From contig OZ246001.1 of the NCBI GenBank assembly GCA_965230295.1, positions 3,360,001-3,424,000 on the forward strand: 64,000 nucleotides of DNA, written 5' to 3'. Positions 2,574 through 57,948 of this stretch are shown here, in pieces. The notes below the pieces were generated by a model. That model saw only the letters and a list, made by a program, of their open reading frames with translations, made no database searches and was not told the origin of the DNA. This stretch comes from Marinicella sp. Lineage in GTDB: Bacteria; Pseudomonadota; Gammaproteobacteria; Xanthomonadales; Marinicellaceae. Both the position numbers and the translations under genes were made by a program. How positions within the stretch are numbered: the stretch's first letter is position 1; the number at the start of each line of letters is the position of its first letter.

Positions 2574-5371
2574 GCCAAGACTATAAAAACACGCTCAATT
2601 TACCCAAAACCAATTTTAAGATGAAAGCATCTTTGGCGACCAAAGAACCACAGTGGATTAAGCAGTGGAATAAAGAAGGTCTTTATGATGCATTACAAAA
2701 ACATCACAAGGACAACAAGCCGTTCATTTTGCATGATGGCCCTCCATATGCCAATGGTGCCATTCACATTGGTCATGCGGTTAATAAGATTTTAAAAGAC
2801 ATCATCGTTAAATCTAAAATGATGTCTGGTTTCAGGGCACCTTATGTACCGGGTTGGGATTGCCATGGTTTACCGATTGAAGTACAGGTTGAAAAGAAAG
2901 TAGGCAAAGTGGGGCAAAAAGTCGACGCCAAAGTGTTCAGGCAAAAATGTCGGGATTATGCTGAAAACCAAATCAGGATTCAAAAGCAGGATTTCATACG
3001 TCTGGGGGTGTTAGGGGATTGGGAAAACCCTTACATGACCAAGTCATTTGATTACGAAGCCAACATGATCCGTGCTTTGGCAGAAATAGCCAAAAACAAC
3101 CACATTGAAAAAGGTGTTAAGCCTGTAAACTGGTGTTTTGATTGTGGTTCGGCACTGGCCGAGGCAGAAATTGAATACCAGGACAAAACTTCACCTGCCA
3201 TAGATGTGGCATTTGATTTTGTTGCACCTGATGCGGTGGCTGAAAAGTTCGGTGTGCCTTCAATGGAAAAAACAGTGGCGGTGCCCATATGGACCACGAC
3301 CCCATGGACCATTCCAGCCAACCGGGCAGTGTCTTTGCATCCTGAATTGTCATACGCACTGGTCAGTGGTCATAGCAAGTACCTTTTGGTGGTGGCTGAG
3401 TCAATGGTTGATGAGGTGATGTCTCGATTAGGTGTTGATGACCATGAAGTGTTGGCTACTGTAATAGGCAGTGAACTTGAGCTACTTAAACTAAAACACC
3501 CCATCTATGACATACAGGTGCCGGTAGTTCTGGGTGAACATGTCAACACGGAAGCGGGTACCGGTGCTGTTCATACGGCCCCAGGACATGGTGTTGACGA
3601 TTTTCTGGTGGGCAAAAAATATGATTTGGAAATCTACAATCCAGTCGATTCTGATGGTGTTTATTTGCCGGATACAGAACGCTTTGCAGGTCAGCATGTT
3701 TGGCAAGCCAATAAAACCGTGGTGGAGGCACTGTCTGAAACGGGCCAGTTACTGCATCACGAAAACATTCAGCACAGTTACCCTCATTGTTGGCGCCATA
3801 AAACGCCAACGGCTTTCAGAACCACGCCGCAATGGTTCATCAGTATGGATAAAGAAGGCTTACGTACCCAGTCATTGAATGAAATCAAACAAGTACAATG
3901 GATTCCTTCTTGGGGCGAAGAACGCATCTATAAAATGATAGAAAATAGACCAGAATGGTGTATTTCTAGGCAGCGAACATGGGGGGTGCCAATCACCATG
4001 TATGTAAACAAGCAAACAGGGGAGTTGCACCCAGATACCGCCACGATCATGGAAGATGTCGCCAAGAAGGTGGAACTTAAAGGCATGGATGTTTGGTATG
4101 ATTTGGATGATTCGCAATTTTTAGGTGATGAAATCGATGCCTATGAAAAGGTCACAGATGTTTTGGATGTGTGGTTTGATTCTGGCGTCACACATTACTG
4201 TGTCTTGAAGCAAAATGAAGTGTTGTCCGAACCGGCAGATTTGTATCTTGAAGGATCTGATCAACACCGCGGTTGGTTTCATTCATCTTTGTTAACCGGG
4301 GTGGCCATCAATGACCGTGCACCTTACAAGCAAGTGTTGACTCATGGCTTCGTGGTAGACAAAGACGGCAAAAAAATGTCGAAATCTTTGGGTAATGTGA
4401 TTTCCCCTAAAGACGTGGTTAACACCTTGGGAGCAGATATTTTGCGACTGTGGGTGGCATCTGCTGATTACCGTGGCGAAATGACCATTTCAGACGAGAT
4501 TTTGAATCGTGCTGCCGATGGTTATCGTCGCATCAGAAACACGGCACGATTTATGCTGGGCAACCTCAATGAATTTGGGACTGAAAACTTGTTGCCTTTG
4601 AATCAGTGCACAGAAATAGATTTGTGGGCCATCAACCAGGCCAAAGAGCTGCAAGAAGAGGTGATTGAGTGCTACGATGCCTACCAATTACATTTGGTGT
4701 TTCAGAAAGTTTTACACTTTTGTTCTCAAGAAATGGGTGCGTTCTATTTGGATGTGATCAAAGACCGGCTATACACATGTCATAAAGACAGTGCGGCACG
4801 CAGATCTGCCCAAACGGCCATGTATCATATATTGAACTCATTACAATGCTTGATTACCCCCATACTGACTTTCACTGCAGATGAAATCAGGCTTTCACGA
4901 GGGCAGAAAAAGCACATATTGTTCTCGCAATGGTATAACTTTCCTGACATTGATTTTGCTGACCAGGCTGACAAATGGCAATTGATTGCAGCCATCAGGC
5001 AAGCCGTTTCTAAACAGCTTGAAAACCTGAGGGTGGCTGGAGAAATAGGCTCATCGCTTGATGCCGAGGTTAACTTATTTTTACCAGATGATTTGTTTGC
5101 ACAACTACAAAACATGTCAGCTGATTTGCGTTTTGTGTTGATCACCTCTGAAGCCAATATTCATCCATGGTCCGAACGCGGTGATGCTGAGGCCATTGAG
5201 TTGGCATCAGGTGAACACATTGCTGTGACAGCCAAAACGGCAGCCGGTGAAAAGTGTGAACGCTGTTGGCACATCAGAACCGATGTTGGTGTTAACGCCA
5301 ACCACCCAACTATTTGTGGTCGTTGTGTCGAGAATGTTGACGGACCGGGCGAAATCAGGAGATTTGCTTGA
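2570..5371 (+). CDS. ileS: isoleucine-tRNA ligase (type 1)
   Basis: HDGPPYANGAIHIGH (HIGH), KMSKS, WCISRQR, C-terminal CERCW...CGRC zinc finger; GTG start. Confidence 0.99.
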   Translation: MSQDYKNTLNLPKTNFKMKASLATKEPQWIKQWNKEGLYDALQKHHKDNKPFILHDGPPYANGAIHIGHAVNKILKDIIVKSKMMSGFRAPYVPGWDCHGLPIEVQVEKKVGKVGQKVDAKVFRQKCRDYAENQIRIQKQDFIRLGVLGDWENPYMTKSFDYEANMIRALAEIAKNNHIEKGVKPVNWCFDCGSALAEAEIEYQDKTSPAIDVAFDFVAPDAVAEKFGVPSMEKTVAVPIWTTTPWTIPANRAVSLHPELSYALVSGHSKYLLVVAESMVDEVMSRLGVDDHEVLATVIGSELELLKLKHPIYDIQVPVVLGEHVNTEAGTGAVHTAPGHGVDDFLVGKKYDLEIYNPVDSDGVYLPDTERFAGQHVWQANKTVVEALSETGQLLHHENIQHSYPHCWRHKTPTAFRTTPQWFISMDKEGLRTQSLNEIKQVQWIPSWGEERIYKMIENRPEWCISRQRTWGVPITMYVNKQTGELHPDTATIMEDVAKKVELKGMDVWYDLDDSQFLGDEIDAYEKVTDVLDVWFDSGVTHYCVLKQNEVLSEPADLYLEGSDQHRGWFHSSLLTGVAINDRAPYKQVLTHGFVVDKDGKKMSKSLGNVISPKDVVNTLGADILRLWVASADYRGEMTISDEILNRAADGYRRIRNTARFMLGNLNEFGTENLLPLNQCTEIDLWAINQAKELQEEVIECYDAYQLHLVFQKVLHFCSQEMGAFYLDVIKDRLYTCHKDSAARRSAQTAMYHILNSLQCLITPILTFTADEIRLSRGQKKHILFSQWYNFPDIDFADQADKWQLIAAIRQAVSKQLENLRVAGEIGSSLDAEVNLFLPDDLFAQLQNMSADLRFVLITSEANIHPWSERGDAEAIELASGEHIAVTAKTAAGEKCERCWHIRTDVGVNANHPTICGRCVENVDGPGEIRRFA

Positions 5372-5874
5372 TGGACATCAGGTCAACAGGGCTGAAGTAT
5401 TTGTGGGTCAGTTTTTTGGTGTTGATTTTAGACCAATGGACCAAATCTTTGGCCAGTGCAAATCTTGATTTGTATGTACCGAATAAAATCACTGATTTCT
5501 TCAATTTAACCTTGATGCACAACGAAGGTGTGGCATTCAGCTTGTTGGCTGATCAATCCGGCTGGCAAAGGTATTTCATCTCGGTGGTGGCTTCATTGAT
5601 TGTCATTTGGTTGCTGTATTGGCTGTATAAAAACAAGCCCTCTATGAAATTACAAAACACGGCCTTGGTACTGGTCATTGGCGGTGCATTGGGTAACATA
5701 TGGGATCGGGTGTTGTTGGGCTATGTGGTTGACTTTGTTGAATTGCACTATAACGGTTATTATTGGCCTGCGTTCAATGTGGCAGATTCTGCCATCTCCT
5801 TAGGAGCCGTTTTGTTGATCATTGATGCCTTCAAAAATAAACAAGTGGACGACCATGAAAGTTCTGCTGGCTAA
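5368..5874 (+). CDS. lspA: lipoprotein signal peptidase II
   Basis: [37 protein letters not shown] motifs. Confidence 0.97.
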
Positions 5875-9943: not shown

Positions 9944-9955
9944 TCAGAGGTTCAC

Positions 9956-13561: not shown

Positions 13562-13569
13562 GAATTGAT

Positions 13570-13908: not shown

Positions 13909-13911
13909 ATT

Positions 13912-16496: not shown

Positions 16497-16832
16497 CTAG
16501 TCCACCTCAGTGGTGGTCACATCTTCTTTGTTTGGAAAGTAGTTACCTTCTGTTCTTACCAACTTATTGTCTTCAAAAAACAAACTCAGTTTCTTGATTT
16601 TTTTGAACTCACCTTTGACTTTGCTGGTGTTGATGTAATCCCATCGGTCTTGGTTGAATGGGTCAGCAACAGTGGGTGTACCCAGGATGATGACCACTTG
16701 TTGTTTGGACATGCCTGGTTTCACTTCATCTATGTCTTCCTGCTTTAAAATGTTGCCTTGTTGGACCGGTGTTTTGTAACAAGCTGTGAGTCCAGTAAAT
16801 GCAAGCAATGTGGCAATAAGAATAATTTTCAT
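16497..16832 (-). CDS. bamE: outer membrane assembly lipoprotein BamE
   Basis: Lipobox LTAC; QQGN, GMSKQQV, LGTP, RWDY; divergent from fur. Confidence 0.95.
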   Translation of the reverse strand: MKIILIATLLAFTGLTACYKTPVQQGNILKQEDIDEVKPGMSKQQVVIILGTPTVADPFNQDRWDYINTSKVKGEFKKIKKLSLFFEDNKLVRTEGNYFPNKEDVTTTEVD

Positions 16833-31458: not shown

Positions 31459-32400
31459 ATGATTGAATGTTTGAATTTAAGTAAAAAGTTTGGCCAGTTT
31501 ACCGCAGTCAATGACTTAACATTTACTGCCAACCAAGGTCAGGTACTTGGGTTTTTAGGGCCCAATGGTGCGGGTAAATCCACCACCATGAAAATGATCA
31601 CAGGTTTTTTGGAACCCACCGCTGGTGACATCAAAGTCTGCGGCATTGATATTTCTGAGAACCCGGTTGCTGTGAAACGCAAAATTGGCTACTTACCTGA
31701 AGGTGCGCCCAGTTATGGCGAAATGGAAGTGGGTCAATTTTTGAATTTCATTGCGGCCTTACGTGGTCTGGATGCCAACATGATAAAACCAGCAGTAGAA
31801 TCAGTGATTTCCAGGGTCAATCTAGAAAAAGTCTACTTTCAAAGGATTGAAACCCTTTCTAAAGGTTTTAAAAGACGGGTTGGTTTGGCACAAGCCATCA
31901 TTCATGACCCGGAAGTGCTGATTATGGACGAGCCAACAGATGGACTTGATCCGAACCAGAAGCACCAGGTCAGAGAATTGATTACAGACATGTCAAAGGA
32001 CAAAACCATCATCTTGTCTACCCATATCCTGGAAGAGGTGCATGCAGTTTGTGATCGTGCTTTGGTCATCGCTGGCGGTGTCTTGGTTGCAGATAACACA
32101 CCAGCTGAAATGGAAAACATGTCCAGATACCATCATGCAGTGAGCTTCGTTTCCGACTTGGATACTGATTTATTGAATAAAATCAAAAATATGGATTGTG
32201 TACTTGATGTAAATTATGATTCAAGGTTAAAGGAAACCACCGTGTTTCCAACACAAGGTTTGTTTATCTTCGATGAAATCAGTGAATTTTTAAGAAAAGA
32301 ATCCATCCAGGTTAAAAGTCTGAAAATGGAAGCCGGTCGGTTGGATGAGGTATTTCGTAACATCACCCAAAATGTCGGTGAAAGGGAGGTGGTGAAATGA
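31459..32400 (+). CDS. ABC transporter ATP-binding protein (GldA-like)
   Basis: GPNGAGKST, LSKGFKRRVG, ILIMDEPT-type Walker B, STH. Confidence 0.92.
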   Translation: MIECLNLSKKFGQFTAVNDLTFTANQGQVLGFLGPNGAGKSTTMKMITGFLEPTAGDIKVCGIDISENPVAVKRKIGYLPEGAPSYGEMEVGQFLNFIAALRGLDANMIKPAVESVISRVNLEKVYFQRIETLSKGFKRRVGLAQAIIHDPEVLIMDEPTDGLDPNQKHQVRELITDMSKDKTIILSTHILEEVHAVCDRALVIAGGVLVADNTPAEMENMSRYHHAVSFVSDLDTDLLNKIKNMDCVLDVNYDSRLKETTVFPTQGLFIFDEISEFLRKESIQVKSLKMEAGRLDEVFRNITQNVGEREVVK

Positions 32401-33131
32401 GTCCTATAAGAACCATTGTTAAAAGAGAGTTACAGAGCTATTTCGCGACGCCTATTGCTTATGTCTTTATTGTGATATTTTTGATCATGAGTGGGGTGTT
32501 TGGCTTTTATTTTGGTAATTTATATGAAAGGGGTCAGGCTGACCTCATTCCATTTTTCAACTTCCATCCCTGGTTGTATTTATTTTTGGTGCCTGCAGTG
32601 GCTATGCGATTGTGGTCTGAAGAACGTAACAGTGGCAACATTGAATTGTTGATGACTCTACCTGTTAATAAAATGGATTGGGTTGTTGGAAAATTTTTGG
32701 CCGCGTGGTTGTTCATAGGTCTGGCACTGTTGCTGACGTTCCCTATGGTTGTTTCCATCAATTATTTAGGTAACCCAGACAATGGGTTGATTGTGGCCAG
32801 TTATTTTGGCAGTTTCTTACTGGCTGGTGGATTTTTGGCCATTGGCAGTTGTCTGTCAGCAGCCACAAAAAACCAGGTGATAGCATTCATCTTGACAGTG
32901 GTGATTTGCTTTTTGTTCCTGCTTTCCGGGTTTCCCATGGTGCTGAACTTCTGCAAACTGTTTTTACCACAAGTGATGGTTGACGCCATTGCCTCAACCA
33001 GCTTTCTGACCCATTTCGACTCAATCACCAAAGGTGTTTTGGATTTAGGGGATTTATGTTATTTCGGCATTGTTATTGGTTTGTGGTTGTACGCCACAGC
33101 GTTAGTTATTGATATGAAAAAGGCAGATTAA
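32397..33131 (+). CDS. ABC-2 permease (GldF-like)
   Basis: RELQSYFATPIAY, MRLWSEERNSGNIELLMTLP, GKFLA, TKNQVIAF. Confidence 0.9.
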   Translation: MSPIRTIVKRELQSYFATPIAYVFIVIFLIMSGVFGFYFGNLYERGQADLIPFFNFHPWLYLFLVPAVAMRLWSEERNSGNIELLMTLPVNKMDWVVGKFLAAWLFIGLALLLTFPMVVSINYLGNPDNGLIVASYFGSFLLAGGFLAIGSCLSAATKNQVIAFILTVVICFLFLLSGFPMVLNFCKLFLPQVMVDAIASTSFLTHFDSITKGVLDLGDLCYFGIVIGLWLYATALVIDMKKAD

Positions 33132-33133
33132 TC

Positions 33134-34981
33134 ATGCAAAAACAAGCACATAAAACACAATTATTTATGATGGCCGCCATATTCTTGTTGGCTGCCGTTG
33201 TCATCAGCCAAAGTGGTTTGTTCTCTAGGCTGCGAGTCGATTTGACGGAAAACAACTTATTCACTTTGAACGACGGAACCATCAATATATTGAAGGATAT
33301 TGATGAAAACATCCATTTGCGGTTGTTTTATTCTGATCAAGCCACTGAAAACATTCCAATGCTGAGGACATATCACCGCCGGGTGGTTGATTTCCTTCAG
33401 GAACTGGAACGTTATGGTTCCGGGAAATTGACTGTTACCATGATCGATCCAGTGACTTTTTCAGAAGAAGAGGACCAGGCATCACAATATGGCTTGCAAG
33501 CCTTACCTGTTGGGGAGGGTGGTGAAAATGTCTTTTTTGGCATTGCTGGAACCAACGCCATCGATGCCGTTGAAGTCATCCCGTTCCTGCAACCAGATCG
33601 TGAGGCCTTTCTTGAATATGATTTGGCCCAATTGATTTACAACTTGAATAACCCAGCCAAACGCACAGTGGGTGTTATGAGCGACTTGTCGTTGTTAGGA
33701 AGTTTCGATCCACAAACCGGTCAAATTCCAGGGCAAATCATATTTGAGCAGTTGAAAGAAATGTACAATGTGGTTCCTGTGGCTACGGATACCTCAAGCA
33801 TCGGTGATGTCGACTTGTTGTTGGTGGTTCATCCAAAAAACCTGACTGAATCCACACTGTTTGCCATTGATCAATTTGTCATGAATGGCGGCAGACTGAT
33901 GGTCTTTGTTGACCCCATGGCCCAATCAGAAGAAGTGCCTGCAGATCCTCAGAACCCAATGGCCCAACTCCAGGCTGATCGATCATCTGGTTTGGCCGTA
34001 CTGTTTCATGCTTGGGGTGTTGGGTTTGATAAAACCAAGGTGTTGTTAGACAACCAGCACGCCGTATCAATTCAAGCAGCTCAAGGACAAACCATCAGAC
34101 ATTTGGGAATCAATTCGTGGACTCAAAATAACATGAATCAAGATGACATTGTGACTTCTGACCTGTCTTCGCTCAACACGGCGTTGGCCGGGACATTGAC
34201 CAGCAGCACTGATAATTTGTTGCCGATTTTAACCACTTCAGAACAAACCATGTTAACCAGCAATGATGCGATGTCATTGTTGTATAACCCCAATGTTTTG
34301 TTCCAAAACTTCCAGCCAGAAGATCAATCTCATGTCATTGTAGCCAGGATCAAAGGTGCATTGAACAGTGCTTTCCCAAGCGGAATCGAAGGGCAAACAG
34401 AAGTTTTGTCACAAGTTGAGCAACCACAAGTGGTGATATTTGCCGATGTTGATGTTTTGTTTGACCGCATGTGGGTGCGGGCACAAAACTTTTTTGGCAG
34501 GCAGATTTACTCGAATTTCGCTGACAACGGGTCATTAATCAATAACTTGATTGACAACATGACCGGCAGTGCTGATTTGATTCAAGTGCGGGCCAGGGGA
34601 ACTTCAAACAGACCTTTTGATAAAGTACAAGAGATCAAACGGGTCAGTGAGCAAAAATACCGAGAAACTGAAAGCCAACTGCTGCAGCAGCTTCGTGAGA
34701 CAGAAAATAAATTGAATGAATTGCAACGCATCAAAGGTCAAGAAAACCAATTGATCATCAGCCAGGAGCAACAACAGGAAATCAACCGCTTTAAGCAACG
34801 AAAACTTGAAGTGCGAAAAAGCCTCAGAGAAGTCAAACGTAATCTGAACAAAGACATTGAAGCATTGGGCACTCAATTGAAGTTCATTAACATCGCATTG
34901 GTGCCCATATTACTCACGGCATTGATTGTCTTTTTATCTTGGAGAAAATCAAAACGTAAGGAGCGTCAGTATGTTAAGTAA
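33134..34981 (+). CDS. GldG-like ABC auxiliary component
   Basis: RVDLTENNLFTL, LEYDL, IDQFVMNGG, large periplasmic domain, coiled coil, C-terminal TM. Confidence 0.87.
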   Translation: MQKQAHKTQLFMMAAIFLLAAVVISQSGLFSRLRVDLTENNLFTLNDGTINILKDIDENIHLRLFYSDQATENIPMLRTYHRRVVDFLQELERYGSGKLTVTMIDPVTFSEEEDQASQYGLQALPVGEGGENVFFGIAGTNAIDAVEVIPFLQPDREAFLEYDLAQLIYNLNNPAKRTVGVMSDLSLLGSFDPQTGQIPGQIIFEQLKEMYNVVPVATDTSSIGDVDLLLVVHPKNLTESTLFAIDQFVMNGGRLMVFVDPMAQSEEVPADPQNPMAQLQADRSSGLAVLFHAWGVGFDKTKVLLDNQHAVSIQAAQGQTIRHLGINSWTQNNMNQDDIVTSDLSSLNTALAGTLTSSTDNLLPILTTSEQTMLTSNDAMSLLYNPNVLFQNFQPEDQSHVIVARIKGALNSAFPSGIEGQTEVLSQVEQPQVVIFADVDVLFDRMWVRAQNFFGRQIYSNFADNGSLINNLIDNMTGSADLIQVRARGTSNRPFDKVQEIKRVSEQKYRETESQLLQQLRETENKLNELQRIKGQENQLIISQEQQQEINRFKQRKLEVRKSLREVKRNLNKDIEALGTQLKFINIALVPILLTALIVFLSWRKSKRKERQYVK

Positions 34982-47938: not shown

Positions 47939-50900
47939 ATGAAATTTATTATCTTTTCAGCCACTGTGCTGCTATCAACCACATCAATATCAAGCTCATT
48001 TGAGGTGATTAAGCATTCTGTTCATGCCAATGATGAGTTAAACAAAAGCTCTGAAAGAAAAACACTGGTTCTCAATGCCGGTGAATTTGACCCTTTGTAT
48101 GAGCAGTTAATTCACCGATCCTTGGTAGAAAAAAGTGACAGACAAAGCCCATATGGCTTGGTGCAAATTCATGCCAATGATTCACAAGGATTGGCGAATA
48201 TTGAATCTATGGGCGCACAAGTTTTGGGTTATTTACCGCATGACACCTATTTAGTTAAGTGGGGTGCAGTTGAAAGGAATCAAATCATGTCATCAGACAT
48301 GTTTCGTTACACAGGTGATTACAGCAACGCCTATAAGTTCAATGCCGGCTTATGGAGTCAAGCCAAATCACTGGGAATTAATGATGCTCCCCAGGCTGTG
48401 ACCATCGATTTGTTTGGCTTTCCGGGTGTGCCTGTTTCAAGAATAGAACAAACTCTAATGAAAGTCATGGCGGATGCTGTTATTGAATCCAGTCGGGACC
48501 TCAATAACATGCCATATGTGAAACTAACTTTGCAAGGGGATGTGGCCTCTAATATCCTACAGCTGGCTAACACGGTTGATGTCATGTGGATGACTATGCA
48601 TGTTCAGGATAAGATTTTGAATATCGATTCAGTTGGACCCATTCAATCTAACAACCCGGAAATTACCCAAGCCACCATTTGGGACAAAGGACTGATTGGT
48701 ACAGGTCAGGTTGTAGCTGTTGTTGACAGTGGGTTAGACAGAAACCAAGATTTTTTCTCACAATACGACACCGGTTCTGGAGCGGTGACTAAAAAGTACA
48801 CAGACGCCAGCAGCCCTCCAGTAGGGGAGGTGGGAACGATCAATGCCGATCATAAGGTGATTGCTTATTATGTTCAGCCAGGTGCATCTGCTTATGATGA
48901 CGATTCCCAATGTGGCGAAGATGGTACACCCTCTGGATTTCACGGGACACATGTCACAGGAACTGTTGCCGGGGATGCCGGAACTCCTGCCAATTCAAGT
49001 GCTGCTAATTATGATGAAGGCGATGGTATGGCACCGCATGCACAAATTCTCTTTCAAGACATTGGCAACACCCAGTCCGGTTGCTTAACAGCTGGAAGTA
49101 CTCGCTATGAAATGCACCTGCAAGCAGCAAAATCAGGGGCCTCAATTTCATCCAACAGTTATGGCGGAGATGCTGAAAACAGTTCAAGTGAAGGTTACTT
49201 TTTTGGTGATTATCAAGTAGATTTAGCCAGTTATGAATTAGAAGACCTGTTGATTGTTGTGTCGGCTGGGAACAGCGGTATAAGGGCCCTATCACATCCT
49301 GGACATGCAAAAAACGCGGTAACTGTGGGTGCTTTGGGTCATGGTGATTCAACCACGGCAGCATCATTTTCATCGCGAGGGTTTGCCTTTGATGACCGCG
49401 TAAAACCTGATGTGATGGCACCTGGTGTTGGTATCTTTTCTGCCGAAGGTAATTTAGACAATTCAGTACCGCCTGCCGGAGTCAACAATGGTATTACGCC
49501 TAAGAATGGAACGTCTATGGCGACTCCGACTGTTTCAGGAGGCCTGGCGTTGATGCGACAGTATTTCACAGATGGCTTTTATCCGTCAGGAGCTAAAAAC
49601 AATGACGATCAGCTTGAACCCTCAGGTTCACTGCTAAAATCCACCTTACTGAACGGCACCTTACTGAACAGCCGAGCCCCATCAGTGGATCAAGGCTGGG
49701 GTCGTATATTCTTGGACAATAACTTGTATTTTGCTGGAGACTCAAAAGCATTGCGAGTTTGGGATTTACCGAATGCGGATGGTTTGAGCACTGGTGAATC
49801 ATTCAGCTTTGAAGTCAATGTACCTGCAGGTGAAGCATTCAGGGCCACGTTGACTTGGTTTGATCCTCCACCGTTGGTCCAATCTGGAAAAGCTTTGGTC
49901 AACGATTTAGATTTAGAAGTCAGGTTCAATGGAAAAGTTTACATGGGTAATGATTTGTTTGGCAGCGTATCCCAAGAGGGAGGATCGGCTGATACCCTTA
50001 ACAATGTGGAACAATTTCATTTGCCGAACCCTGAACCTGGCATTTATGAAGTTGTTGTGAAAGGGTCTCAAGTGAATGGTACGAGTGCAGGGTCTCAGAC
50101 TCAGAAACAAGGTTTTGCCTTGGTGACATCTCAAGGCCAATGCAGTTCCCAAGTCGGTGCGGCACCACAAATCACATTAACCGAATCCAGTGAGTTACGG
50201 CCTGTGGTTAACATTGATCCATTAAGCAATGTGACAGATTACCAAATTTATAAAAAACCAGGTGGTTGTGATGTCCCTAACTCAAAATTCAGATTCATCG
50301 GTCAAGCCAGCGGATCTGCAGGGGACATTTCATTCACTGATTTCAACACACTCCCAAACGAGATTTATGGCTATGCAGTCAAAGCCGTGGATGCCTGTGG
50401 TGAAGGTCAATTCAGCAGTTGTCTAGAAATTCAATCGAACGCTCAGTGTTCATTGAAACCAGCATTCAACACCAGTTCTTTGAATGTGAAATCTACCGGG
50501 TATGAAGGCTGTTCAGTTAATTTGGCATGGGAAGCTGGTCAAAATCAATGCCAGGCCGGAAGTGCTGTGAAATACAATATTTACCGTTCGTTGCAAGCAG
50601 ATTTCCAACAAAGTGACAACAACAGGATTGCACAAGGCGTCTCTCGTTTGGATTATAACGATCACACGGTTGAAAACAATCAGACCTATTACTACAAAGT
50701 GACTGCGGTAGATGACATTGGCAACGAATCTTTTCAGGTGAGTAGTTTAAGCGTTTTTACCACAGGTGATGATTTTTCATCTACAGGTACCTATGTTGAT
50801 GATCCTGATTCAACCACTTTTGCTACGCTACGAAATCCATGGAGAATTACCAGTTTCCGCAGTACTACAGGAAGCCAAAGTTTTCATAATGCCGAAGATG

Positions 50901-52105
50901 GCAAAAGATATTTGCCTAATACCTGCGCATACATGACGTTACCAGAAATTGAAATTCAAGCAGGTCAATCGACTTTGACTTATGATGCTGCCTACAACGT
51001 AGAAGAGTATTGGGACGGTGTGGTGGTCCAAATATCGACCAATGGTGGTGAAACCTGGTCAGACTTGCCTCCTGATGGCGGTTACCCTTCTGATTTCAGG
51101 GATACAGCACCACAAGGCACCCCAATCAATGCCTGTGGTTTTCCAGCTACCCAAGGTGCCTTCAATGGAGCACAAAACACGTTTGCTCCATTCACGACTG
51201 ATTTATCTGCCTATGCAGGTGAATCAGTGATCATTCGGTGGGGGTTTTCATCTGATGAAGCTTCTGAAGAACCTGGCTTTTATCTGGACAACATTCAGAT
51301 AGGCAATGCCAGTGCGCCAGGTGTGTGCGAGGTCAAAACGATCACCAAAGACACCGCCGGACCCTGGTTTAACCCTGATCAATCTGGTCATGGTTTTTTC
51401 CTTGAAATTTCTGATGGTGGAACTGGTAACCCAGAGCGTATTACTGGTTATTGGTATGCCTATTTAGATGGAGAGCCCAGGTGGTTGTTAGGCACAGGAC
51501 TGACCAATGGCAACAGCGCAACCATTGATATGTTGGTCACATCAGGTGGGATATCGCCCCCTAATTTTGATCCAAGTGCTATAGAAGTCACCCCATGGGG
51601 GGACTTGACCTTTGACTTCAGTAGCCCAACTGAAGGCCTTATCACTTGGAGCAGCAGCATCCCCGGCTTTGGTTCTGGAAGCATGCCTATCGCCAAATTG
51701 GCAAACATCAGTGATTCGCCGAAAGCTTGCCTGAGCGGCTCTTACAGTGATCCTGCGCAACCAGGACACGGTTATGTGATTGAAGTCATTGGTGCTACCG
51801 GTGCCGAATCGGTGTTGATGACCTGGTACAGTTATGACAATGATGGCAATCAAATTTGGTTGATTGGTTCCGGTGCATTGAACGGTACATCAGCCACTAT
51901 ACCAGTCAGTGTGTTCAGTGGTGCCGACTTTCCGCCACAATTTGATCCCAATGATGTCATGGGTCAGCAGTGGGGTGTACTGGAGCTTGATTTCAGTGTA
52001 TTGAATTCATTGGGTGTGTCTTGGCAAGCTGATTTACCAGGGTACTCTGATGGTCAAGTCACCGCTGCAAAATTAACAGAATTGAAAGGCAGATCCTGTT
52101 TCTGA
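47939..52105 (+). CDS. secreted S8 subtilase with FN3-like and repeated C-terminal domains
   Basis: Catalytic triad VVDSG / HGTHVTGT / GTSMATP; signal peptide; YNIYRS...YYYKVTAVD FN3-like segment; two C-terminal repeats. Confidence 0.9.
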   Translation: MKFIIFSATVLLSTTSISSSFEVIKHSVHANDELNKSSERKTLVLNAGEFDPLYEQLIHRSLVEKSDRQSPYGLVQIHANDSQGLANIESMGAQVLGYLPHDTYLVKWGAVERNQIMSSDMFRYTGDYSNAYKFNAGLWSQAKSLGINDAPQAVTIDLFGFPGVPVSRIEQTLMKVMADAVIESSRDLNNMPYVKLTLQGDVASNILQLANTVDVMWMTMHVQDKILNIDSVGPIQSNNPEITQATIWDKGLIGTGQVVAVVDSGLDRNQDFFSQYDTGSGAVTKKYTDASSPPVGEVGTINADHKVIAYYVQPGASAYDDDSQCGEDGTPSGFHGTHVTGTVAGDAGTPANSSAANYDEGDGMAPHAQILFQDIGNTQSGCLTAGSTRYEMHLQAAKSGASISSNSYGGDAENSSSEGYFFGDYQVDLASYELEDLLIVVSAGNSGIRALSHPGHAKNAVTVGALGHGDSTTAASFSSRGFAFDDRVKPDVMAPGVGIFSAEGNLDNSVPPAGVNNGITPKNGTSMATPTVSGGLALMRQYFTDGFYPSGAKNNDDQLEPSGSLLKSTLLNGTLLNSRAPSVDQGWGRIFLDNNLYFAGDSKALRVWDLPNADGLSTGESFSFEVNVPAGEAFRATLTWFDPPPLVQSGKALVNDLDLEVRFNGKVYMGNDLFGSVSQEGGSADTLNNVEQFHLPNPEPGIYEVVVKGSQVNGTSAGSQTQKQGFALVTSQGQCSSQVGAAPQITLTESSELRPVVNIDPLSNVTDYQIYKKPGGCDVPNSKFRFIGQASGSAGDISFTDFNTLPNEIYGYAVKAVDACGEGQFSSCLEIQSNAQCSLKPAFNTSSLNVKSTGYEGCSVNLAWEAGQNQCQAGSAVKYNIYRSLQADFQQSDNNRIAQGVSRLDYNDHTVENNQTYYYKVTAVDDIGNESFQVSSLSVFTTGDDFSSTGTYVDDPDSTTFATLRNPWRITSFRSTTGSQSFHNAEDGKRYLPNTCAYMTLPEIEIQAGQSTLTYDAAYNVEEYWDGVVVQISTNGGETWSDLPPDGGYPSDFRDTAPQGTPINACGFPATQGAFNGAQNTFAPFTTDLSAYAGESVIIRWGFSSDEASEEPGFYLDNIQIGNASAPGVCEVKTITKDTAGPWFNPDQSGHGFFLEISDGGTGNPERITGYWYAYLDGEPRWLLGTGLTNGNSATIDMLVTSGGISPPNFDPSAIEVTPWGDLTFDFSSPTEGLITWSSSIPGFGSGSMPIAKLANISDSPKACLSGSYSDPAQPGHGYVIEVIGATGAESVLMTWYSYDNDGNQIWLIGSGALNGTSATIPVSVFSGADFPPQFDPNDVMGQQWGVLELDFSVLNSLGVSWQADLPGYSDGQVTAAKLTELKGRSCF

Positions 52106-52676: not shown

Positions 52677-53786
52677 ATGGGAATCTGGGATAAATTATTC
52701 GGTGAATTGGTAGACGTGATTGAGTGGACAGATGACACACAACACACTTTGGTCTATCGATTCCCACGTTATGGAAATGAAATTAAAAACGGTGCTATGT
52801 TAACAGTTCGTGAAGGCCAAATGGCGGTTTTGGTTAATGAGGGAGAAGTGGCCGATGTATTTGAGCCTGGCTTGTATGAACTCAGTACCGCGAACATCCC
52901 CATTTTGTCGTCTTTACAAGGTTGGAAACATGGTTTTGAAAGTCCATTCAAAGCAGAAGTTTATTTCTTCAACACCAAAGTTTTTACTGACATGAAATGG
53001 GGGCTTAGAAACCCATTGATTTTGCGTGATCGAGAATTTGGGGTGATCAGAATCAGGGCCTTTGGGAGTTATGCTTTTCGCATCAACGATCCCCATAAAA
53101 TGATGTCTGAAATAGTGGGCACTGATGGCCATTTCGTCTTAGAGGAGATCATAGGTCAGTTGAAGAACCTGGTGGTGACTGGGTTTGCTAAAGTACTGAG
53201 TGAATCGGGTGTTCCAGTCTTGGATTTGGCGGCCAGTTATGATGACCTCGGTCAGTTTTTGACCAGTCAAATTCAACCGATGTTCAATGAATATGGGCTC
53301 AAACTAGAAACCATGTTGGTCGAAAATGTTTCCGTTCCAGAATCTGTTGAAAAAGCGCTGGATGAACGTGCCAGTTCCATTGCTGTGGGTGATTTGAATC
53401 GATTCACACGTTATCAACAAGCGCAATCAATGCGGGATGCAGCTAACAATCAATCCGGCGCAGCAGGCGGTGGAATGGCCATGGGCATGGGGTTTGGAAT
53501 GGCACAATCTTTTGGTCAAGCATTGGCTAAGGGTGATGACACTGACCCCTTGCAACCACCTCCTACGCCACAACAAGTTAAAGAGGTTAAACATTATTTT
53601 GTCATTGTTGATGGTAAACGGGTTGGGCCCATTAATTTAGCTGCGGTGGCAGAAATGGTGGCCCATGATCAAATCAATGCTGATACCCTGATGTGGACTG
53701 CTGGTTTGAATGATTGGACTGCGGCAGAGGGTATGTCAGAGGTGCAACAACTGCTCAACAACCAACCACCAAAAATGCCTGAGTAG
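52677..53786 (+). CDS. SPFH (band 7, YdjI-like) protein with C-terminal GYF_2 domain
   Basis: DVIEW, LTVREGQ, SPFKAEVYF, RAFGSY; GMGMGFG; GP...I..DTLMWTAGLNDW. Confidence 0.85.
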   Translation: MGIWDKLFGELVDVIEWTDDTQHTLVYRFPRYGNEIKNGAMLTVREGQMAVLVNEGEVADVFEPGLYELSTANIPILSSLQGWKHGFESPFKAEVYFFNTKVFTDMKWGLRNPLILRDREFGVIRIRAFGSYAFRINDPHKMMSEIVGTDGHFVLEEIIGQLKNLVVTGFAKVLSESGVPVLDLAASYDDLGQFLTSQIQPMFNEYGLKLETMLVENVSVPESVEKALDERASSIAVGDLNRFTRYQQAQSMRDAANNQSGAAGGGMAMGMGFGMAQSFGQALAKGDDTDPLQPPPTPQQVKEVKHYFVIVDGKRVGPINLAAVAEMVAHDQINADTLMWTAGLNDWTAAEGMSEVQQLLNNQPPKMPE

Positions 53787-53800
53787 TCACTCAACCCAAC

Positions 53801-54886
53801 ATGATTTCTTACACACACTTTAAATGTAACCAGTGTGGTTCTGACTTGGACTATGCCATTGGCTTGCACTCTTTAAAATGTGTCAGCTGTGGTGAAGTGG
53901 ATCCCATAGAAGCATCACCTTTGGACATGTATTTGGCCCATGATTACAAATCTGCCATCAGTGATCTCAGCTACTTTGATCCCAAAACAGTCAGTCATGA
54001 ACTGAATTGTGAAAACTGTGGCGCCAATTTCATGTTGCCGACCAATGTGCATGCTGAGGAATGTCCTTATTGTGATTTGAATGTTGTGGTACCAGTGGAG
54101 TTATCAAGAAAGCTGAAACCAGATGGGGTGATTCCATTCGAAATAAAGCAACATCAGGCAGAAGCCTCATTCAAAAAGTGGATCAGTGGATTGTGGTTTG
54201 CTCCCAATGCCTTGAAAAGGAAAGCCATCCAAGCACAATCCATTGTGGGTTCATACATGCCGATGTGGGCCTTTGATGCAGAGGTAGACAGTCGTTATAC
54301 CGGAGAACGTGGTGATAATTATCACACGACTGTTCGTGTTCCTACCCAGGTGAATGGAAAAACAGTCATGAAAACCAGAACTGTGGTAAAAATAAAATGG
54401 CGGTATCGTTCAGGGCAAGTCCACAACAGCTTTGATGATGTGATGACCCTGGGTAGCACCACCTTACCAGTTAAATTTCAGCGTTTTTTATCCGATTGGG
54501 ATTTATATAAAACACAGAACTACAATGAAAAATACCTCAGTGGATTCAGGTCTGAGCTCTATCAAATTGGTTTGCCCGAAGCGTTTAAAATGGCCAAAGA
54601 TGTCATGCAATTCACCATCAGGGCCACCGTCAGACATGACATCGGAGGTGATCATCAAAGGATTCACCAGGTTGATTCGACCTATCGACAAGTCGGGTTT
54701 AAATTGTTGCTGGCCCCAATGTGGATTTCAGCGTTTAACTTCAACAAGAAATCTTACCGTTATGTGATCAATGGACAAAATGGCAAAGCACATGGTGAAC
54801 GACCTTACAGTATTTTCAAAATAGTTGGCTTTGCGTTGACCGTGATTTCTGTGGTTGGGGTCGGGTTCATGCTTTTTAATCGATGA
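53801..54886 (+). CDS. multi-Zn-ribbon membrane-anchored protein (YdjG-like)
   Basis: Four CxxC pairs (CNQC, CVSC, CENC, CPYC); PDGVIPF, WFAP, YMPMWAFD, INGQNGK.HGERP; C-terminal TM. Confidence 0.8.
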   Translation: MISYTHFKCNQCGSDLDYAIGLHSLKCVSCGEVDPIEASPLDMYLAHDYKSAISDLSYFDPKTVSHELNCENCGANFMLPTNVHAEECPYCDLNVVVPVELSRKLKPDGVIPFEIKQHQAEASFKKWISGLWFAPNALKRKAIQAQSIVGSYMPMWAFDAEVDSRYTGERGDNYHTTVRVPTQVNGKTVMKTRTVVKIKWRYRSGQVHNSFDDVMTLGSTTLPVKFQRFLSDWDLYKTQNYNEKYLSGFRSELYQIGLPEAFKMAKDVMQFTIRATVRHDIGGDHQRIHQVDSTYRQVGFKLLLAPMWISAFNFNKKSYRYVINGQNGKAHGERPYSIFKIVGFALTVISVVGVGFMLFNR

Positions 54887-55041
54887 TTCTGTGGTCTCAG
54901 TCAATCAAGCCGGATTGATATGAACAATAAAATCTATAGGAATACTGAAAATGATGGCTTAAATGCGATAGACAAGACCTTCAACAAGCATTAAACTTAG
55001 CATATGTTCAATAACGATCAAGGTGTTTAAAAAAAACCTTA

Positions 55042-55887
55042 ATGACAGAAGACCAGAGTAGGAAAGATTCTGATCAGGATAATCAGAAGTCATGGTTAAG
55101 CAAATTAGCCAATCTTTTTACGGATGAACCACAAAATCGCGACGACCTCATTCATATATTACATGAAGCTTATAACAACCATTTGGTTGATATTGATGCT
55201 TTGAATATGATGAAAGGTGCCTTAAAAGTATCAGAGTTACAAGTTCGTCAAGTGATGGTTCCCAGGGCCCAAATGGTCGTGATTCCACAAACATCAGACA
55301 TTGAGGATGTTTTGCCCATCATCGTTGAGTCAGGACACTCCCGATTTCCAGTCGTTGGAGAAGATAAAGATGAACTGGAAGGCATTTTATTGGCCAAAGA
55401 TGTATTGAAGTCATTTGTAAAAGATGAAGATGATTTTAATTTACGGCAAATCATTCGACCCGCAGTGGTGATTCCAGAATCAAAACAGGTCAATATCCTT
55501 TTGAATGAATTCAGAACGACACGCAATCACATGGCCATCATCATTGATGAATATGGTGGTGTTGCTGGTTTGGTGACCATTGAAGACATTTTGGAAGAAA
55601 TTGTCGGTGAAATTGATGATGAATACGATGATCAAGAAGATCCATATGTGATGAACGTGAGTGACCAGCTATACCGCATCAATGCCTTGACCACCATTAC
55701 AGAGTTCAACGAGCAATTCAAGTTTGATTTTGATGACACCGAATATGACACCATTGGCGGATTGGTTGCCAGTGAAGCAGGGCGGTTACCAGAAACCGGT
55801 GAGTTGATTGAAGTGGCTGATCTGACATTCAAGGTGATCAAAGCAGACAAACGCCGCATTGAATTCGTTGAAGTAGACTTAAGTTAG
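55042..55887 (+). CDS. corC: Mg/Co transport-associated CBS protein CorC (YbeX)
   Basis: VMVPRAQM, SGHSRFPV, GILLAKD, PESK, HMAIIIDEYGGVAGLVTIEDILEEIVGEIDDEYD. Confidence 0.93.
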   Translation: MTEDQSRKDSDQDNQKSWLSKLANLFTDEPQNRDDLIHILHEAYNNHLVDIDALNMMKGALKVSELQVRQVMVPRAQMVVIPQTSDIEDVLPIIVESGHSRFPVVGEDKDELEGILLAKDVLKSFVKDEDDFNLRQIIRPAVVIPESKQVNILLNEFRTTRNHMAIIIDEYGGVAGLVTIEDILEEIVGEIDDEYDDQEDPYVMNVSDQLYRINALTTITEFNEQFKFDFDDTEYDTIGGLVASEAGRLPETGELIEVADLTFKVIKADKRRIEFVEVDLS

Positions 55888-55888
55888 T

Positions 55889-56950
55889 TTGAAACGTCTG
55901 TTGATATCAGTCTTTCTGGTTTTTGTTGGCTTTTCAAGTGCAGCCAAAACCGTGCGATTGATCACCATTGGGCCGGGCGATGCTTTTTGGTCAGCTTTTG
56001 GTCATACGGCCATCGCCATTGACGACGAAGTTTATGGTTTTGGTTATTTCAGTTTTGATCTTGATATCATTAAATCCTTCGTTTCAAACAGCATGATGTA
56101 TGAACTGGGTGTCAGCGAAATCAATTATGAAGCCAATCTGGCTGAGCAGCAAAACAGAACTTTCAGTTATATTGATCTTGAATTGAGTGAAGAACAAACC
56201 AGTCAACTGGCTGATTTTCTTGACTGGCATTATTTGCCAGAAAACCAAACTTACCGTTACGATTACTTCTTGAATAATTGTTCAACCAAAATTCGTGATT
56301 TACTGATTTTGGCATGGCCCAATGATTTCGAGCAAAACAGTCAGGAATTAACTGACAGCAGTTATTTCGAACAAACCTTTCCAGCCAAACACCAAGGGTT
56401 GATGAACTTAGGATTGGCTGTGGGTTATGGGTGGGAAGCTTACCAGCAAAGAAACCATTGGGAGTTGATGGCTTTTCCGGTTTATCTTGAACAACAAGTG
56501 GTGAAAATGGCCGCTGAAAAAACAACACACCGCCAGGTTGTGTATGAAACCATACCGAGTCGCTCAATGGAATACCTGATTAAAACCCATTGGGCATTGA
56601 TTGCCTATGTGTTGTTTTGGATCTTGATCCTCATGCCCAGGTCGAATCAAGTGGCCACCAAAAGCTGGTTTATTTGGCACGGCTTGATAGGTTGGGGTTT
56701 GATGGGATTGTGGTTTCTGACGCCACATTCGGCGGCGGACTGGAATGTCAATGTGTTGTTGTTTTCACCCTTTGGGTTATTTATTTTGTTTTCAGAGAAA
56801 AGCAAGCACTTTATATACCCTGGCTGGGTGTTGTGGCTGCTGTTCAGTGTCTACCTCAATGCATGGTATTTAATTCCCATGCTACTGCCTGCTTTTATGG
56901 CCATGCGCAACTTAAGTGCTGATAGGCAATCTACAGTTAAGGCTCAATGA
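55889..56950 (+). CDS. DUF4105 / Lnb-like candidate lipoprotein N-acyltransferase
   Basis: Signal peptide; LITIGPG, FGHTAI, YGFGYF, YRYDYFLNNCSTKIRD, MAFP; several C-terminal TMs; TTG start 1 nt after corC. Confidence 0.75.
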   Translation: MKRLLISVFLVFVGFSSAAKTVRLITIGPGDAFWSAFGHTAIAIDDEVYGFGYFSFDLDIIKSFVSNSMMYELGVSEINYEANLAEQQNRTFSYIDLELSEEQTSQLADFLDWHYLPENQTYRYDYFLNNCSTKIRDLLILAWPNDFEQNSQELTDSSYFEQTFPAKHQGLMNLGLAVGYGWEAYQQRNHWELMAFPVYLEQQVVKMAAEKTTHRQVVYETIPSRSMEYLIKTHWALIAYVLFWILILMPRSNQVATKSWFIWHGLIGWGLMGLWFLTPHSAADWNVNVLLFSPFGLFILFSEKSKHFIYPGWVLWLLFSVYLNAWYLIPMLLPAFMAMRNLSADRQSTVKAQ

Positions 56951-57524
56951 ATTTAACCTGGCCTTTACTGACATTTTGTAATGATACTTTGAATGGCTTC
57001 AACTCTTTAACAGGTAAGCTAACTTCACACTGCATACCTGACACATTGAAGTCCTGATTGTTGGCTTTGCCACCGAAGTCTTCTGCCACTTTAAACAATT
57101 GCTGGCTGTACTCAAAAGGTATTTGTATCAGTAATGTAGCCAACGGAACATGTTCTTTAAAGGGGGCATTCTGTAGGTTTTTAGCGATGGTTCCACCATA
57201 GGCCCTGGCCAAACCGCCGGTGCCTAATTTAATACCGCCATAATAGCGAATAACGAGTGCACCAATGTAATCGAAACCAGCACCGTCTATGGCAGCGAGT
57301 ATTGGTTTTCCAGCAGTGCCTGAAGGTTCACCGTCATCATTGAACCGGTATTCATTACCTATGCGGTAAGCCCAACAGTTATGAGTGGCAGTTAAATCCT
57401 GGTGTTCTGTCAGGGAATGAAAAAAATCTTCTGGTGTTTCTATGTGAAAACAAACACCAATGAAAGTACTTTTTTTGATCAGTTCTTCATTGGTGTTGTT
57501 GGCAGTGATGACTTTAGAGGTCAA
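56937..57524 (-). CDS. yigZ: YigZ/IMPACT family protein (TTG start about 57524)
   Basis: IKKSTF, ATHNCWAYR, DDGEPSGTAGKP, RYYGGIKLGTGGLARAY. Confidence 0.9.
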   Translation of the reverse strand: MTSKVITANNTNEELIKKSTFIGVCFHIETPEDFFHSLTEHQDLTATHNCWAYRIGNEYRFNDDGEPSGTAGKPILAAIDGAGFDYIGALVIRYYGGIKLGTGGLARAYGGTIAKNLQNAPFKEHVPLATLLIQIPFEYSQQLFKVAEDFGGKANNQDFNVSGMQCEVSLPVKELKPFKVSLQNVSKGQVKFIEP

Positions 57525-57948
57525 GATACTCAGATGGTATGGCAGTATTCGGGAATGCTTTGTCCATGAAAGCCACAATTCTCTTAACCATGTCCGTGTT
57601 ACCGTCCTTGCCAAATTTTTCCAGCGCCTTTAATGCTTGATCAGCTGTTTGGTATCGCATGGCTAATTGCATGTTGCTGCGGGCCACTTCTTTCAATGCC
57701 TTCTTGTCTTCTTCTGTAGGCATCAAAAATGGTTCGGGTGGAACGGTATCTTCTTTGGCCTGGGTTGTGGCCATGACTTCAGCTGGTTTGGTCTCAACAG
57801 CAGGTTGAACTTCTGTGACCACTGCAGCCGGCTCAGTAACTGTTTCGGCTTCATTTGCACCAAAAAACTTCCATCCCAAAGCCGCTGCAAACAAAACGCC
57901 TGCAATGATTAAAAATGGCACCAGCACTGATTTTGATTGGGTAGACAT
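57514..57948 (-). CDS. hypothetical membrane-anchored protein
   Basis: N-terminal TM, E/T/P/A-rich linker, helical C-terminus; RBS GAGGA; overlaps the yigZ start. Confidence 0.65.
   Translation of the reverse strand: MSTQSKSVLVPFLIIAGVLFAAALGWKFFGANEAETVTEPAAVVTEVQPAVETKPAEVMATTQAKEDTVPPEPFLMPTEEDKKALKEVARSNMQLAMRYQTADQALKALEKFGKDGNTDMVKRIVAFMDKAFPNTAIPSEYLDL

Follow-up and report, generated by a model that had tools for sequence, protein, structure and literature searches.

In proteobacteria, Lnt is seen as a conserved enzyme that is often essential, and it counts as a drug target; the acylation state of lipoproteins decides innate immune sensing, via TLR2/1 versus TLR2/6. In E. coli K-12 the lnt gene (b0657) follows corC/ybeX in the gene order miaB-ybeZ-ybeY-ybeX-lnt, and its product has LNT_N and CN_hydrolase domains, a nitrilase E-K-C triad and eight membrane helices. 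The lipoprotein N-acyltransferase of Bacteroides is Lnb (BT_4364 / BF9343_0945; Armbruster et al. 2024, PMC11573676). C148 of BT_4364 is essential by mutation, while the Asn of the triad is predicted only, the mutations made being those of C148 and C198 (PMC11573676). LnsA of the Staphylococcus aureus LnsA/LnsB system, which also belongs to the NlpC/P60 superfamily, is likewise used for lipoprotein N-acylation, but LnsA/LnsB is a two-protein Gram-positive system without sequence homology to Lnb (PMC11573676). A permuted NlpC/P60 core with a His and a Cys is also found in TseH of V. cholerae (PDB 6v98) and in the Salmonella T6SS effector Tox-Act1 (PMC12994826). These two lipid-targeting enzymes are secreted toxins that lack a five-helix membrane domain and lie in conflict-system neighbourhoods.

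We analysed a window of 64,000 nucleotides from a Marinicella genome (one contig, 97.9% complete). Here, corC is followed by an Lnb-like gene, in the position that lnt takes in E. coli and in most gammaproteobacteria:

54969..54997, forward strand: sigma-70-like promoter match TAGACA-17-TAAACT upstream of corC, a consensus match only
55042..55887, forward strand: corC, encoding a CNNM-family CBS-pair protein of 281 aa (CBS, CorC_HlyC and NMB0537_N domains)
55889..56950, forward strand: the lnb-like gene, 353 aa plus stop (open reading frame list, Pfam and NCBIfam)

The corC product scored 309.7 bits on the NCBIfam CorC model NF011675, below its cut-off of 379. One base separates its TAG stop (55885-55887) from the TTG start of the lnb-like frame at 55889, and in congeners, too, the frame starts with TTG and the protein with MKRL. 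With a start one nucleotide past the corC stop, corC and the lnb-like gene are likely to be translationally coupled. The promoter match is weak, since two sigma-70-like sites were observed in the region and 5.7 are expected from shuffles.

Searching the 353-residue protein against Pfam revealed an Lnb_N domain (DUF4105, PF13387) at residues 20-144, with 53.7 bits (cut-off 22.2); no second Lnb_N copy was found in the whole genome. The NCBIfam Lnb model NF051878 aligned residues 21-300 to its positions 30-332 of 394 (E 2.8e-25), and the 89 bits obtained are far under the equivalog cut-off of 550. This cut-off is narrow, as the Flavobacteriia-like homologues P0055 and P0059 likewise fail it with 272 and 274 bits. 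The membrane-domain profile 5TMH_Lnb (PF25221) scored under its Pfam cut-off of 25.2 on the Marinicella protein, while the orthologue of genome G036 reached 44.1 bits. The parts of the protein map as follows:

55889..55945, forward strand: signal peptide or N-terminal anchor, residues 1-19 (hydropathy 1.96; model helix 2-12, pLDDT about 73)
55946..56557, forward strand: predicted periplasmic permuted NlpC/P60-like Lnb_N domain, residues 20-223
56003..56005, forward strand: codon of His39, the predicted catalytic His (His49 of Bacteroides Lnb)
56036..56038, forward strand: codon of Gly50, at the predicted third-triad position (Asn66 of Bacteroides Lnb, His+17; alignment A1)
56279..56281, forward strand: codon of Cys131, the predicted catalytic Cys (Cys148 of Bacteroides Lnb)
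56564..56944, forward strand: predicted five-helix membrane domain, residues 226-352 (AlphaFold helices; 5TMH_Lnb 20.0 bits)

The N-terminus, MKRLLISVFLVFVGFSSAAK, resembles a signal peptide, and the hydropathy given above is that of its highest-scoring 19-residue window. In the AlphaFold model (mean pLDDT 93.1), the C-terminal part folds into five helices, at residues 226-248, 254-277, 288-300, 303-322 and 326-352. The permuted NlpC/P60 fold was confirmed for the protein, with TseH (PDB 6v98) as nearest solved structure and best structural match. These results support the view that 55889-56950 encodes an Lnb-family protein with Lnb architecture and a predicted catalytic His/Cys pair. An earlier note had described corC, a one-nucleotide gap and then an Lnb-like frame, which the open reading frame list and the junction sequence bear out; the signal peptide, the FGHTAI and second motifs and the C-terminal transmembrane helices that it named were recovered by translation, hydropathy and the AlphaFold model, and its DUF4105/Lnb assignment by the profile searches.

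To follow the residues across homologues, we used an alignment (A1) of 28 sequences, taken from the order and from three Bacteroidota-like proteins (P0055, P0058 and P0059, one of them named Aequorivita sp.). FGHTAI corresponds to residues 37-42 of the translation and YDYFLNNCSTKIRD to residues 124-137. His39 and Cys131, the sole cysteine of the protein, are conserved in 28/28 sequences. W275, H280 and N286 of the membrane domain are also invariant, Bacteroidota-like sequences included, and across the order N130 and twelve more positions are invariant along with His39 and Cys131. Residue numbers of BT_4364 were matched indirectly, by the spacing of the motifs and the offset of the model. The Asn of the predicted Bacteroides Lnb triad was not found in this protein, which has Gly50 at that position in A1. 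There, P0055, P0058 and P0059 as well as the order's other families have Asn, and Marinicellaceae have G, A or S.

Compared with Bacteroides Lnb, the Marinicella protein is shorter (353 versus 398 aa), has Gly as third triad residue and comes from a gammaproteobacterial host, where its gene sits in the corC/lnt slot. Identity to the three Bacteroidota-like proteins of A1 is 22-24%, and the best local BLASTP alignment gives 29%. With Lnt it shares the position after corC/ybeX and the presumed reaction, a thioester acyl-enzyme on a Cys, but the folds are unrelated and there is no sequence similarity. Unlike the genes of TseH and Tox-Act1, this gene lies in a housekeeping corC operon.

We then looked at the lipoprotein pathway of the genome. 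Neither the window nor the rest of the genome yielded an Lnt; across the genome, TIGR00546 reached at best 52.7 bits (cut-off 132.9) and LNT_N gave a single, sub-threshold match of 15.6 bits. Four frames carry a CN_hydrolase domain (294, 272, 340 and 561 aa). None of them lies at the position of the LNT_N match, no membrane-bound CN_hydrolase was found among the frames of the genome, and the 353-aa frame matches neither LNT_N nor CN_hydrolase in Pfam. The absence of a nitrilase-fold Lnt, claimed earlier for the window, therefore extends to the whole genome. Lgt and LspA are both encoded, and the window holds the following genes of the pathway and its cargo:

5368..5871, forward strand: lspA, signal peptidase II, the preceding pathway step (TIGR00077 138 bits, cut-off 73.95)
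16500..16832, reverse strand: bamE, an example lipoprotein substrate (lipobox LTAC, Cys18)

Of the LolC/E family, one gene alone is above cut-off in the genome, a LolF-type permease. Tolerance of losing lnt correlates with LolF-type systems (PMC11784454). This suggests that diacyl lipoproteins may be tolerated and that N-acylation is perhaps dispensable.

We put the probability at about 0.65 that the frame encodes an Lnb orthologue, an NlpC/P60-type lipoprotein N-acyltransferase cotranscribed with corC, which displaced lnt in situ. That the Marinicella protein N-acylates lipoproteins is suggested by homology, and our literature search found no evidence at the biochemical level for an Lnb in any proteobacterium. 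In the mechanism that we propose, the gene would be co-transcribed and translationally coupled with corC, and the five C-terminal helices would anchor the protein in the inner membrane with the catalytic domain on the periplasmic side. His39 would activate Cys131, and a membrane phospholipid would donate an acyl chain to this Cys, forming a thioester. Lgt and LspA leave a diacylglyceryl-cysteine whose alpha-amino group is free, and the chain would next be moved there, yielding triacylated lipoproteins such as BamE. These would be exported by the Lol system, here with its single LolF-type permease. The displacement itself would have occurred in an early ancestor of the Lysobacterales/Xanthomonadales and not in Marinicella, whose genome would since have lost every Lnt-like gene.

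To place the locus, synteny was mapped by genome searches in 151 genomes of the order (Lysobacterales/Xanthomonadales), some of whose proteins bear Stenotrophomonas and Xanthomonas names. An Lnb orthologue is present in 147/151 genomes, including 12/12 searched in the genus and 19/19 in the family. It directly follows corC in 133 of the 146 genomes showing both genes, an adjacency far above chance. Lnt is above cut-off in 28/151 genomes of the order, against 235/250 across the class. In total, 121 genomes of the order have Lnb only, 26 have both, two have Lnt only and two have neither. The two with Lnt only (G029 and G040, family f6) have corC-lnt without Lnb and are the only corC-lnt genomes among the 151; corC-lnt was also found in G378, outside the order. 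The gene thus stands where lnt stands in E. coli K-12, in f6 and in G378, which agrees with the earlier placement in the lnt slot. The earlier note had assigned the swap to 'this lineage'; the swap is real, but this scope was too narrow. Since corC-lnb prevails throughout the order, the swap dates to a distant ancestor. Protein names in family f11 pointed only to MAG-level or distant matches, namely Lysobacterales or Xanthomonadales bacterium, Dokdonella and Aquimonas. A related-locus search of the genome contigs returned two loci, one of them a chance-like match of 24 residues in a Planctomycetaceae MAG.

Lnb and Lnt are not strictly exclusive, since all but two of the 28 genomes with an Lnt above cut-off in this order carry the Lnb orthologue as well (26 genomes). 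We considered that the coexisting Lnt could be catalytically dead and rejected this, as the Lnt of G034 keeps E267, K335 and C387 and a divergent LNT_N+CN_hydrolase protein of G024, from the same family, apparently keeps E, K and C. Genomes in which Lnt could suffice have therefore kept the orthologue as well. This coexistence, Gly50 and the single LolF-type permease weaken a strict replacement reading. Alternatively, the protein could be an Lnb-family acyl-enzyme acting on another envelope lipid, in phospholipid/lysophospholipid remodelling or on some other amine-bearing lipid, while lipoproteins stay diacyl and are exported by a tolerant LolF-type transporter. The same three observations would fit this explanation, as would the 89 bits, far under the Lnb equivalog cut-off, and the action of the related clades Tox-Act1, LRAT and YiiX on phospholipids (PMC12994826). 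Authors working on Lnt-less Xanthomonas campestris have, moreover, assumed diacyl lipoproteins (PMC10368991). However, the protein shares its architecture over the full length, and the invariant residues of both domains, with the Bacteroidota-like Lnb homologues, and the gene is placed exactly in the lnt slot. Of the three DUF4105 paralogues in G036, the one linked to corC is alone in combining Lnb_N with 5TMH_Lnb and in matching NF051878; the other xanthomonad paralogues, with neither the membrane domain nor a match to that model, were rejected as true Lnb. With the orthologue retained in 147/151 genomes and Lnt patchy, the pattern is also what one would expect if this protein made Lnt dispensable. 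We consider action on another lipid unlikely, but the most serious of the alternatives.

The direction of the swap could also be the reverse, with lnb first in the order and lnt displacing it secondarily in family f6. The wording of PMC12994826, in which DUF4105 proteins 'are repeatedly displaced by' Lnt, points this way, as does the restriction of corC-lnt to 2/151 genomes. Against it, the Lnb orthologue occurs in just 6/250 genomes of the class, where Lnt is nearly general, and in 6/301 of the phylum sample, all six within this order; corC-lnt is found outside the order, in E. coli and G378. An ancestral corC-lnt arrangement is thus more parsimonious, and we regard the reverse order of events as improbable. 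That the Marinicellaceae protein lost activity together with the triad Asn, surviving as a structural or regulatory membrane partner, is suggested by Gly50 where other families and the Bacteroidota-like sequences have Asn, but we consider it very unlikely. Against it stand the order-wide invariance of His39, Cys131, N130 and twelve further positions, the orthologues in all genus and family genomes searched, and a triad Asn that was not among the residues mutated (C148 and C198) in PMC11573676.

Displacement of lnt by lnb in an early ancestor could have wider consequences. We see an even chance that in almost the whole order, the genomes with Xanthomonas and Stenotrophomonas names included, triacylation ancestrally runs through Lnb-type N-acylation and not through Lnt, usually with no second route; that the diacyl assumption for Lnt-less xanthomonads is wrong; and that the Marinicellaceae enzyme is a Cys-His dyad without Asn. 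Little of the swap itself is new. PMC12994826 (2026) reported DUF4105/Lnt displacement, with the M. pacifica locus in its tables, and so already hinted at corC-lnb, as do database names: orthologues appear in UniRef as 'lipoprotein N-acyltransfera...'. For this window alone, the annotation is correct but was already anticipated. If a whole gammaproteobacterial order does use Lnb, Lnt-directed inhibitors would miss it, and Lol modelling with diacyl anchors, as in PMC10368991, would need revisiting. With Lnb alone in some genomes, Lnt alone in two and both in 26, the order offers a natural test of Lnb/Lnt interchangeability.

The earlier note had placed an Lnb-like gene one nucleotide behind corC in the window, in the position normally taken by lnt. 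Inspection of the sequence bore out this gap: the corC stop codon TAG (55885-55887) is followed by one base and then by a TTG start, and the two genes are likely translationally coupled. The features of the locus are:

54969-54997, upstream of corC: promoter-like site, a weak match
55042..55887, + strand: corC, 281 aa, with CBS, CorC_HlyC and NMB0537_N domains (Pfam)
55889..56950, + strand: lnb-like ORF, 353 aa, TTG start
56937..57614, - strand: convergent yigZ-like gene (yigZ/IMPACT family), whose 3' end overlaps that of the lnb-like ORF by 14 nt (56937-56950)

Together, corC and lnb look like a two-gene unit, because the convergent yigZ-like gene overlaps the 3' end and a weak promoter-like site precedes corC. 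None of the five terminator-like matches found in 54700-57200 lies at or beyond the 3' end of the lnb-like ORF. Directly upstream (52677-54886, +) are an SPFH protein (Band_7_1+GYF_2) and a 361-aa zinc-ribbon membrane protein. The E. coli K-12 order is miaB-ybeZ-ybeY-ybeX-lnt, and the three genes that precede corC there do not lie upstream of it here. Marinicella meishanensis carries an orthologue of 56% identity in a syntenic locus, SPFH/zinc-ribbon protein/corC/Lnb-like (L021, compared by ORF order and lengths only), which identifies Marinicella as the window's genus; a supplementary table of PMC12994826 gives the same four-gene order for M. pacifica.

Profile searches assigned the ORF to the Lnb family. 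Pfam Lnb_N matched residues 20-144 with 53.7 bits (cut-off 22.2), while 5TMH_Lnb remained sub-threshold (20.0 bits versus 25.2). With the NCBIfam Lnb equivalog NF051878, the alignment covered residues 21-300 of the protein and positions 30-332 of the 394-position model (E-value 2.8e-25), but its 89 bits fall short of the required 550; this cut-off is narrow, since even Flavobacteriia-like homologues reach only 272-274 bits. The translation contains both motifs reported earlier: residues 37-42 read FGHTAI and residues 124-137 read YDYFLNNCSTKIRD. We aligned 28 sequences: the window ORF, 22 orthologues found elsewhere in the order, two metagenomic relatives and three Bacteroidota-like proteins (one carries the name Aequorivita sp.). 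Invariant residues (G38, H39, G52, F64, Y71, R90, L97, N119, Y122, Y124, N130, C131, P197, W275, H280 and N286) fall in the periplasmic and membrane domains alike, and Cys131 is the only cysteine of the window protein. An AlphaFold model built from this alignment (mean pLDDT 93.1, pTM 0.88) has a mixed alpha/beta N-terminal domain followed by helices at 226-248, 254-277, 288-300, 303-322 and 326-352. Its top Foldseek match was TseH (6v98, E 3.1e-3, probability 1.00), and the structural matches (Foldseek, VIA-align) are those to be expected for Lnb, namely its permuted NlpC/P60 relatives.

Bacteroides Lnb is described as 398 aa long, with its DUF4105 domain in the periplasm and five helices in the membrane; a triad Asn66-His49-Cys148 is predicted for it, and its C148S variant is inactive (PMC11573676). 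The window protein differs from it in that Asn66 is replaced by Gly50. The alignment has G, A or S at this position throughout Marinicellaceae, and Asn, within a motif F/Y-N-Y/F-G, in the order's remaining families and in the Bacteroidota-like sequences; residues were matched to BT_4364 numbering by their spacing (His+17) and by the offset in the model. The missing Asn66 equivalent counts against a simple replacement of Lnt and in favour of an Lnb-family enzyme that acts on another envelope lipid while lipoproteins stay diacyl.

We searched the whole genome of the window (one contig of 4,008,074 bp, 97.93% complete; Gammaproteobacteria, Lysobacterales, Marinicellaceae in the NCBI taxonomy) for Lnt and found none. 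The best TIGR00546 match, in a 294-aa frame, was below the cut-off at 52.7 bits, and LNT_N gave nothing beyond a single sub-threshold match of 15.6 bits, which coincided with none of the four CN_hydrolase frames of the genome (294, 272, 340 and 561 aa). In this genome, which lacks Lnt, the ORF in the lnt slot is an enzyme of the Lnb family. Other parts of the lipoprotein pathway are present: Lgt (230.7 bits), lspA at 5368-5871 in the window (LspA, 137 bits) and, in the window, a BamE with the lipobox LTAC. A single LolC/E-family permease gene of the entire genome scored above the cut-off (479 bits; G000:C1:2905317-2906552, L058, outside the window), which is a LolF-type arrangement. A review describes this arrangement as the commonest and as correlated with tolerance of lnt loss (PMC11784454). 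A LolF-type transporter may therefore render N-acylation optional, a further point in favour of lipoproteins staying diacyl.

Our survey of the GTDB order to which the window belongs took in 151 genomes, all with a completeness of 90% or more. CorC was present in 149, Lnb_N in 148 and an orthologue of the window protein in 147, whereas Lnt was patchy, exceeding its cut-off in 28 genomes (38 with any match at E <= 1e-20).

Lnt (above cut-off) and the lnb-like orthologue in the 151 genomes of the order
Lnt no, orthologue yes: 121 of 151
Lnt yes, orthologue yes: 26 of 151
Lnt yes, orthologue no: 2 of 151 (G029 and G040, family f6)
Lnt no, orthologue no: 2 of 151 (G077 and G120; in G120, corC reaches the contig end)

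Adjacency, parsed from coordinates, could be read in the 146 genomes with both corC and the orthologue. The orthologue lay directly downstream of corC on the same strand in 133 (matched-segment gap 3-358 nt, median 122), 527-1308 nt downstream in five, distant and on the opposite strand in two, and on a separate contig in six. The two f6 genomes have the canonical order, with lnt about 200 nt past corC. Family f2, whose proteins bear Stenotrophomonas and Xanthomonas names, had Lnt in 0/19 genomes and the orthologue in 19/19; this agrees with the independent statement in PMC10368991 that an Lnt gene is missing from X. campestris B100.

Lnt was found in 235 of the 250 genomes of a class-wide sample. 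A profile of the 28-sequence alignment detected the orthologue in six of them, namely the window's genome, two others of its order, G198, G378 and G276 (the hits in G198 and G276 are unpublished data). In G378, corC and lnt are adjacent and the Lnb-like gene lies elsewhere. Since all matches in a phylum-wide sample (6/301 genomes) belonged to the window's order, the full-length Lnb type is, within Pseudomonadota, essentially a trait of this order, where it occupies the lnt slot.

Mutual exclusivity of Lnb and Lnt is imperfect: 26 of the 28 Lnt-bearing genomes of the order retain the orthologue, 24 of them next to corC, again a point against simple replacement. The Lnt of G034 (L007:499-2898, -) spans 800 aa, with LNT_N, CN_hydrolase and a C-terminal extension of about 300 aa without an assigned domain; the E. 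coli Lnt residues E267, K335 and C387 are conserved in it. In most f4 and f11 genomes with Lnt, the match likewise falls in a long frame (754-938 aa), lengths that high G+C may inflate. G024, from another genus of the window's family, combines corC-lnb with a divergent 478-aa LNT_N+CN_hydrolase protein (L068:1553-2986, -; TIGR00546 85.8 + 31 bits, sub-threshold) whose E, K and C seem to be retained. Among those listed, sub-threshold Lnt-like frames also occur in five f12 genomes (G046, G087, G127, G133 and G151; 477-507 aa) and in four f4 genomes (501-697 aa). The Lnt of G099 may be foreign to that genome, as it lies on a 1.6-kb contig and the assembly has 4% contamination.

Paralogues speak against a role on another lipid. 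G036, with Stenotrophomonas-named proteins, encodes three DUF4105 proteins, and only the corC-linked copy matches the Lnb model (Lnb_N + 5TMH_Lnb; NF051878, 160.7 bits). The other two, a 375-aa protein with Lnb_N at its C-terminus only (L009:1324-2448, -; 162 bits) and a 646-aa protein with DUF7844 and Lnb_N (L066:1368-3305, -), have neither the Lnb membrane domain nor an NF051878 match. A near-universal orthologue beside a patchy Lnt is also what would be expected if the orthologue makes Lnt dispensable. Lipoprotein N-acylation is the most likely function of the ORF, with a probability of about 0.65. The earlier proposal that Lnb replaced Lnt in this lineage is partly supported: it stands as to enzyme family, slot and Lnt-less genome, but the swap is ancient and order-wide, and 26 genomes keep both.

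Displacement between DUF4105 proteins and Lnt has been described in print before, and database names reflect the idea as well. The authors of PMC12994826 word it as DUF4105 proteins being repeatedly displaced by Lnt and predict an acyltransferase function from this; their supplementary tables list an M. pacifica member beside SPFH, 'primosomal protein N'' and CBS/CorC proteins, which is the same locus as ours; the main text names neither CorC nor xanthomonads. In UniRef, orthologues from Marinicella and Stenotrophomonas are called 'lipoprotein N-acyltransfera...', and NCBI names some 'lipoprotein N-acyltransferase Lnb domain-containing protein'. Among the DUF4105/Lnb papers listed by our searches, none reports an experimental test of a proteobacterial member. 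The most useful outcome is the order-wide picture, including genomes with Xanthomonas- and Stenotrophomonas-named proteins, which would run counter to the diacyl lipoproteins assumed in print and is directly testable.

Elsewhere in the window, three consecutive genes (31459-34978, +) are similar to GldA/GldF/GldG, the ABC transporter of Bacteroidota gliding motility; their scores of 304, 190 and 90 bits all stay under the equivalog thresholds (402, 288 and 390). After Lnb, this is the second envelope feature with a Bacteroidota flavour in this gammaproteobacterium. The window also encodes another CNNM/CorC-family paralogue, membrane-bound and 418 aa long, at 20520-21773 (-), which scores 414.6 bits in NF008604 and so misses the cut-off of 475. 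At 47939-52105 (+) lies a secreted protease of the subtilisin-like (S8) type, 1388 aa in length, whose long C-terminal domains are repeat-like; only weak NCBIfam similarity was found for it. A type IV pilus minor-pilin cluster (6914-14319, +) includes a PilV-like gene at 7417-7956 and, at 9956-13558, a gene for a PilY1/PilC-like tip adhesin of 1201 aa.
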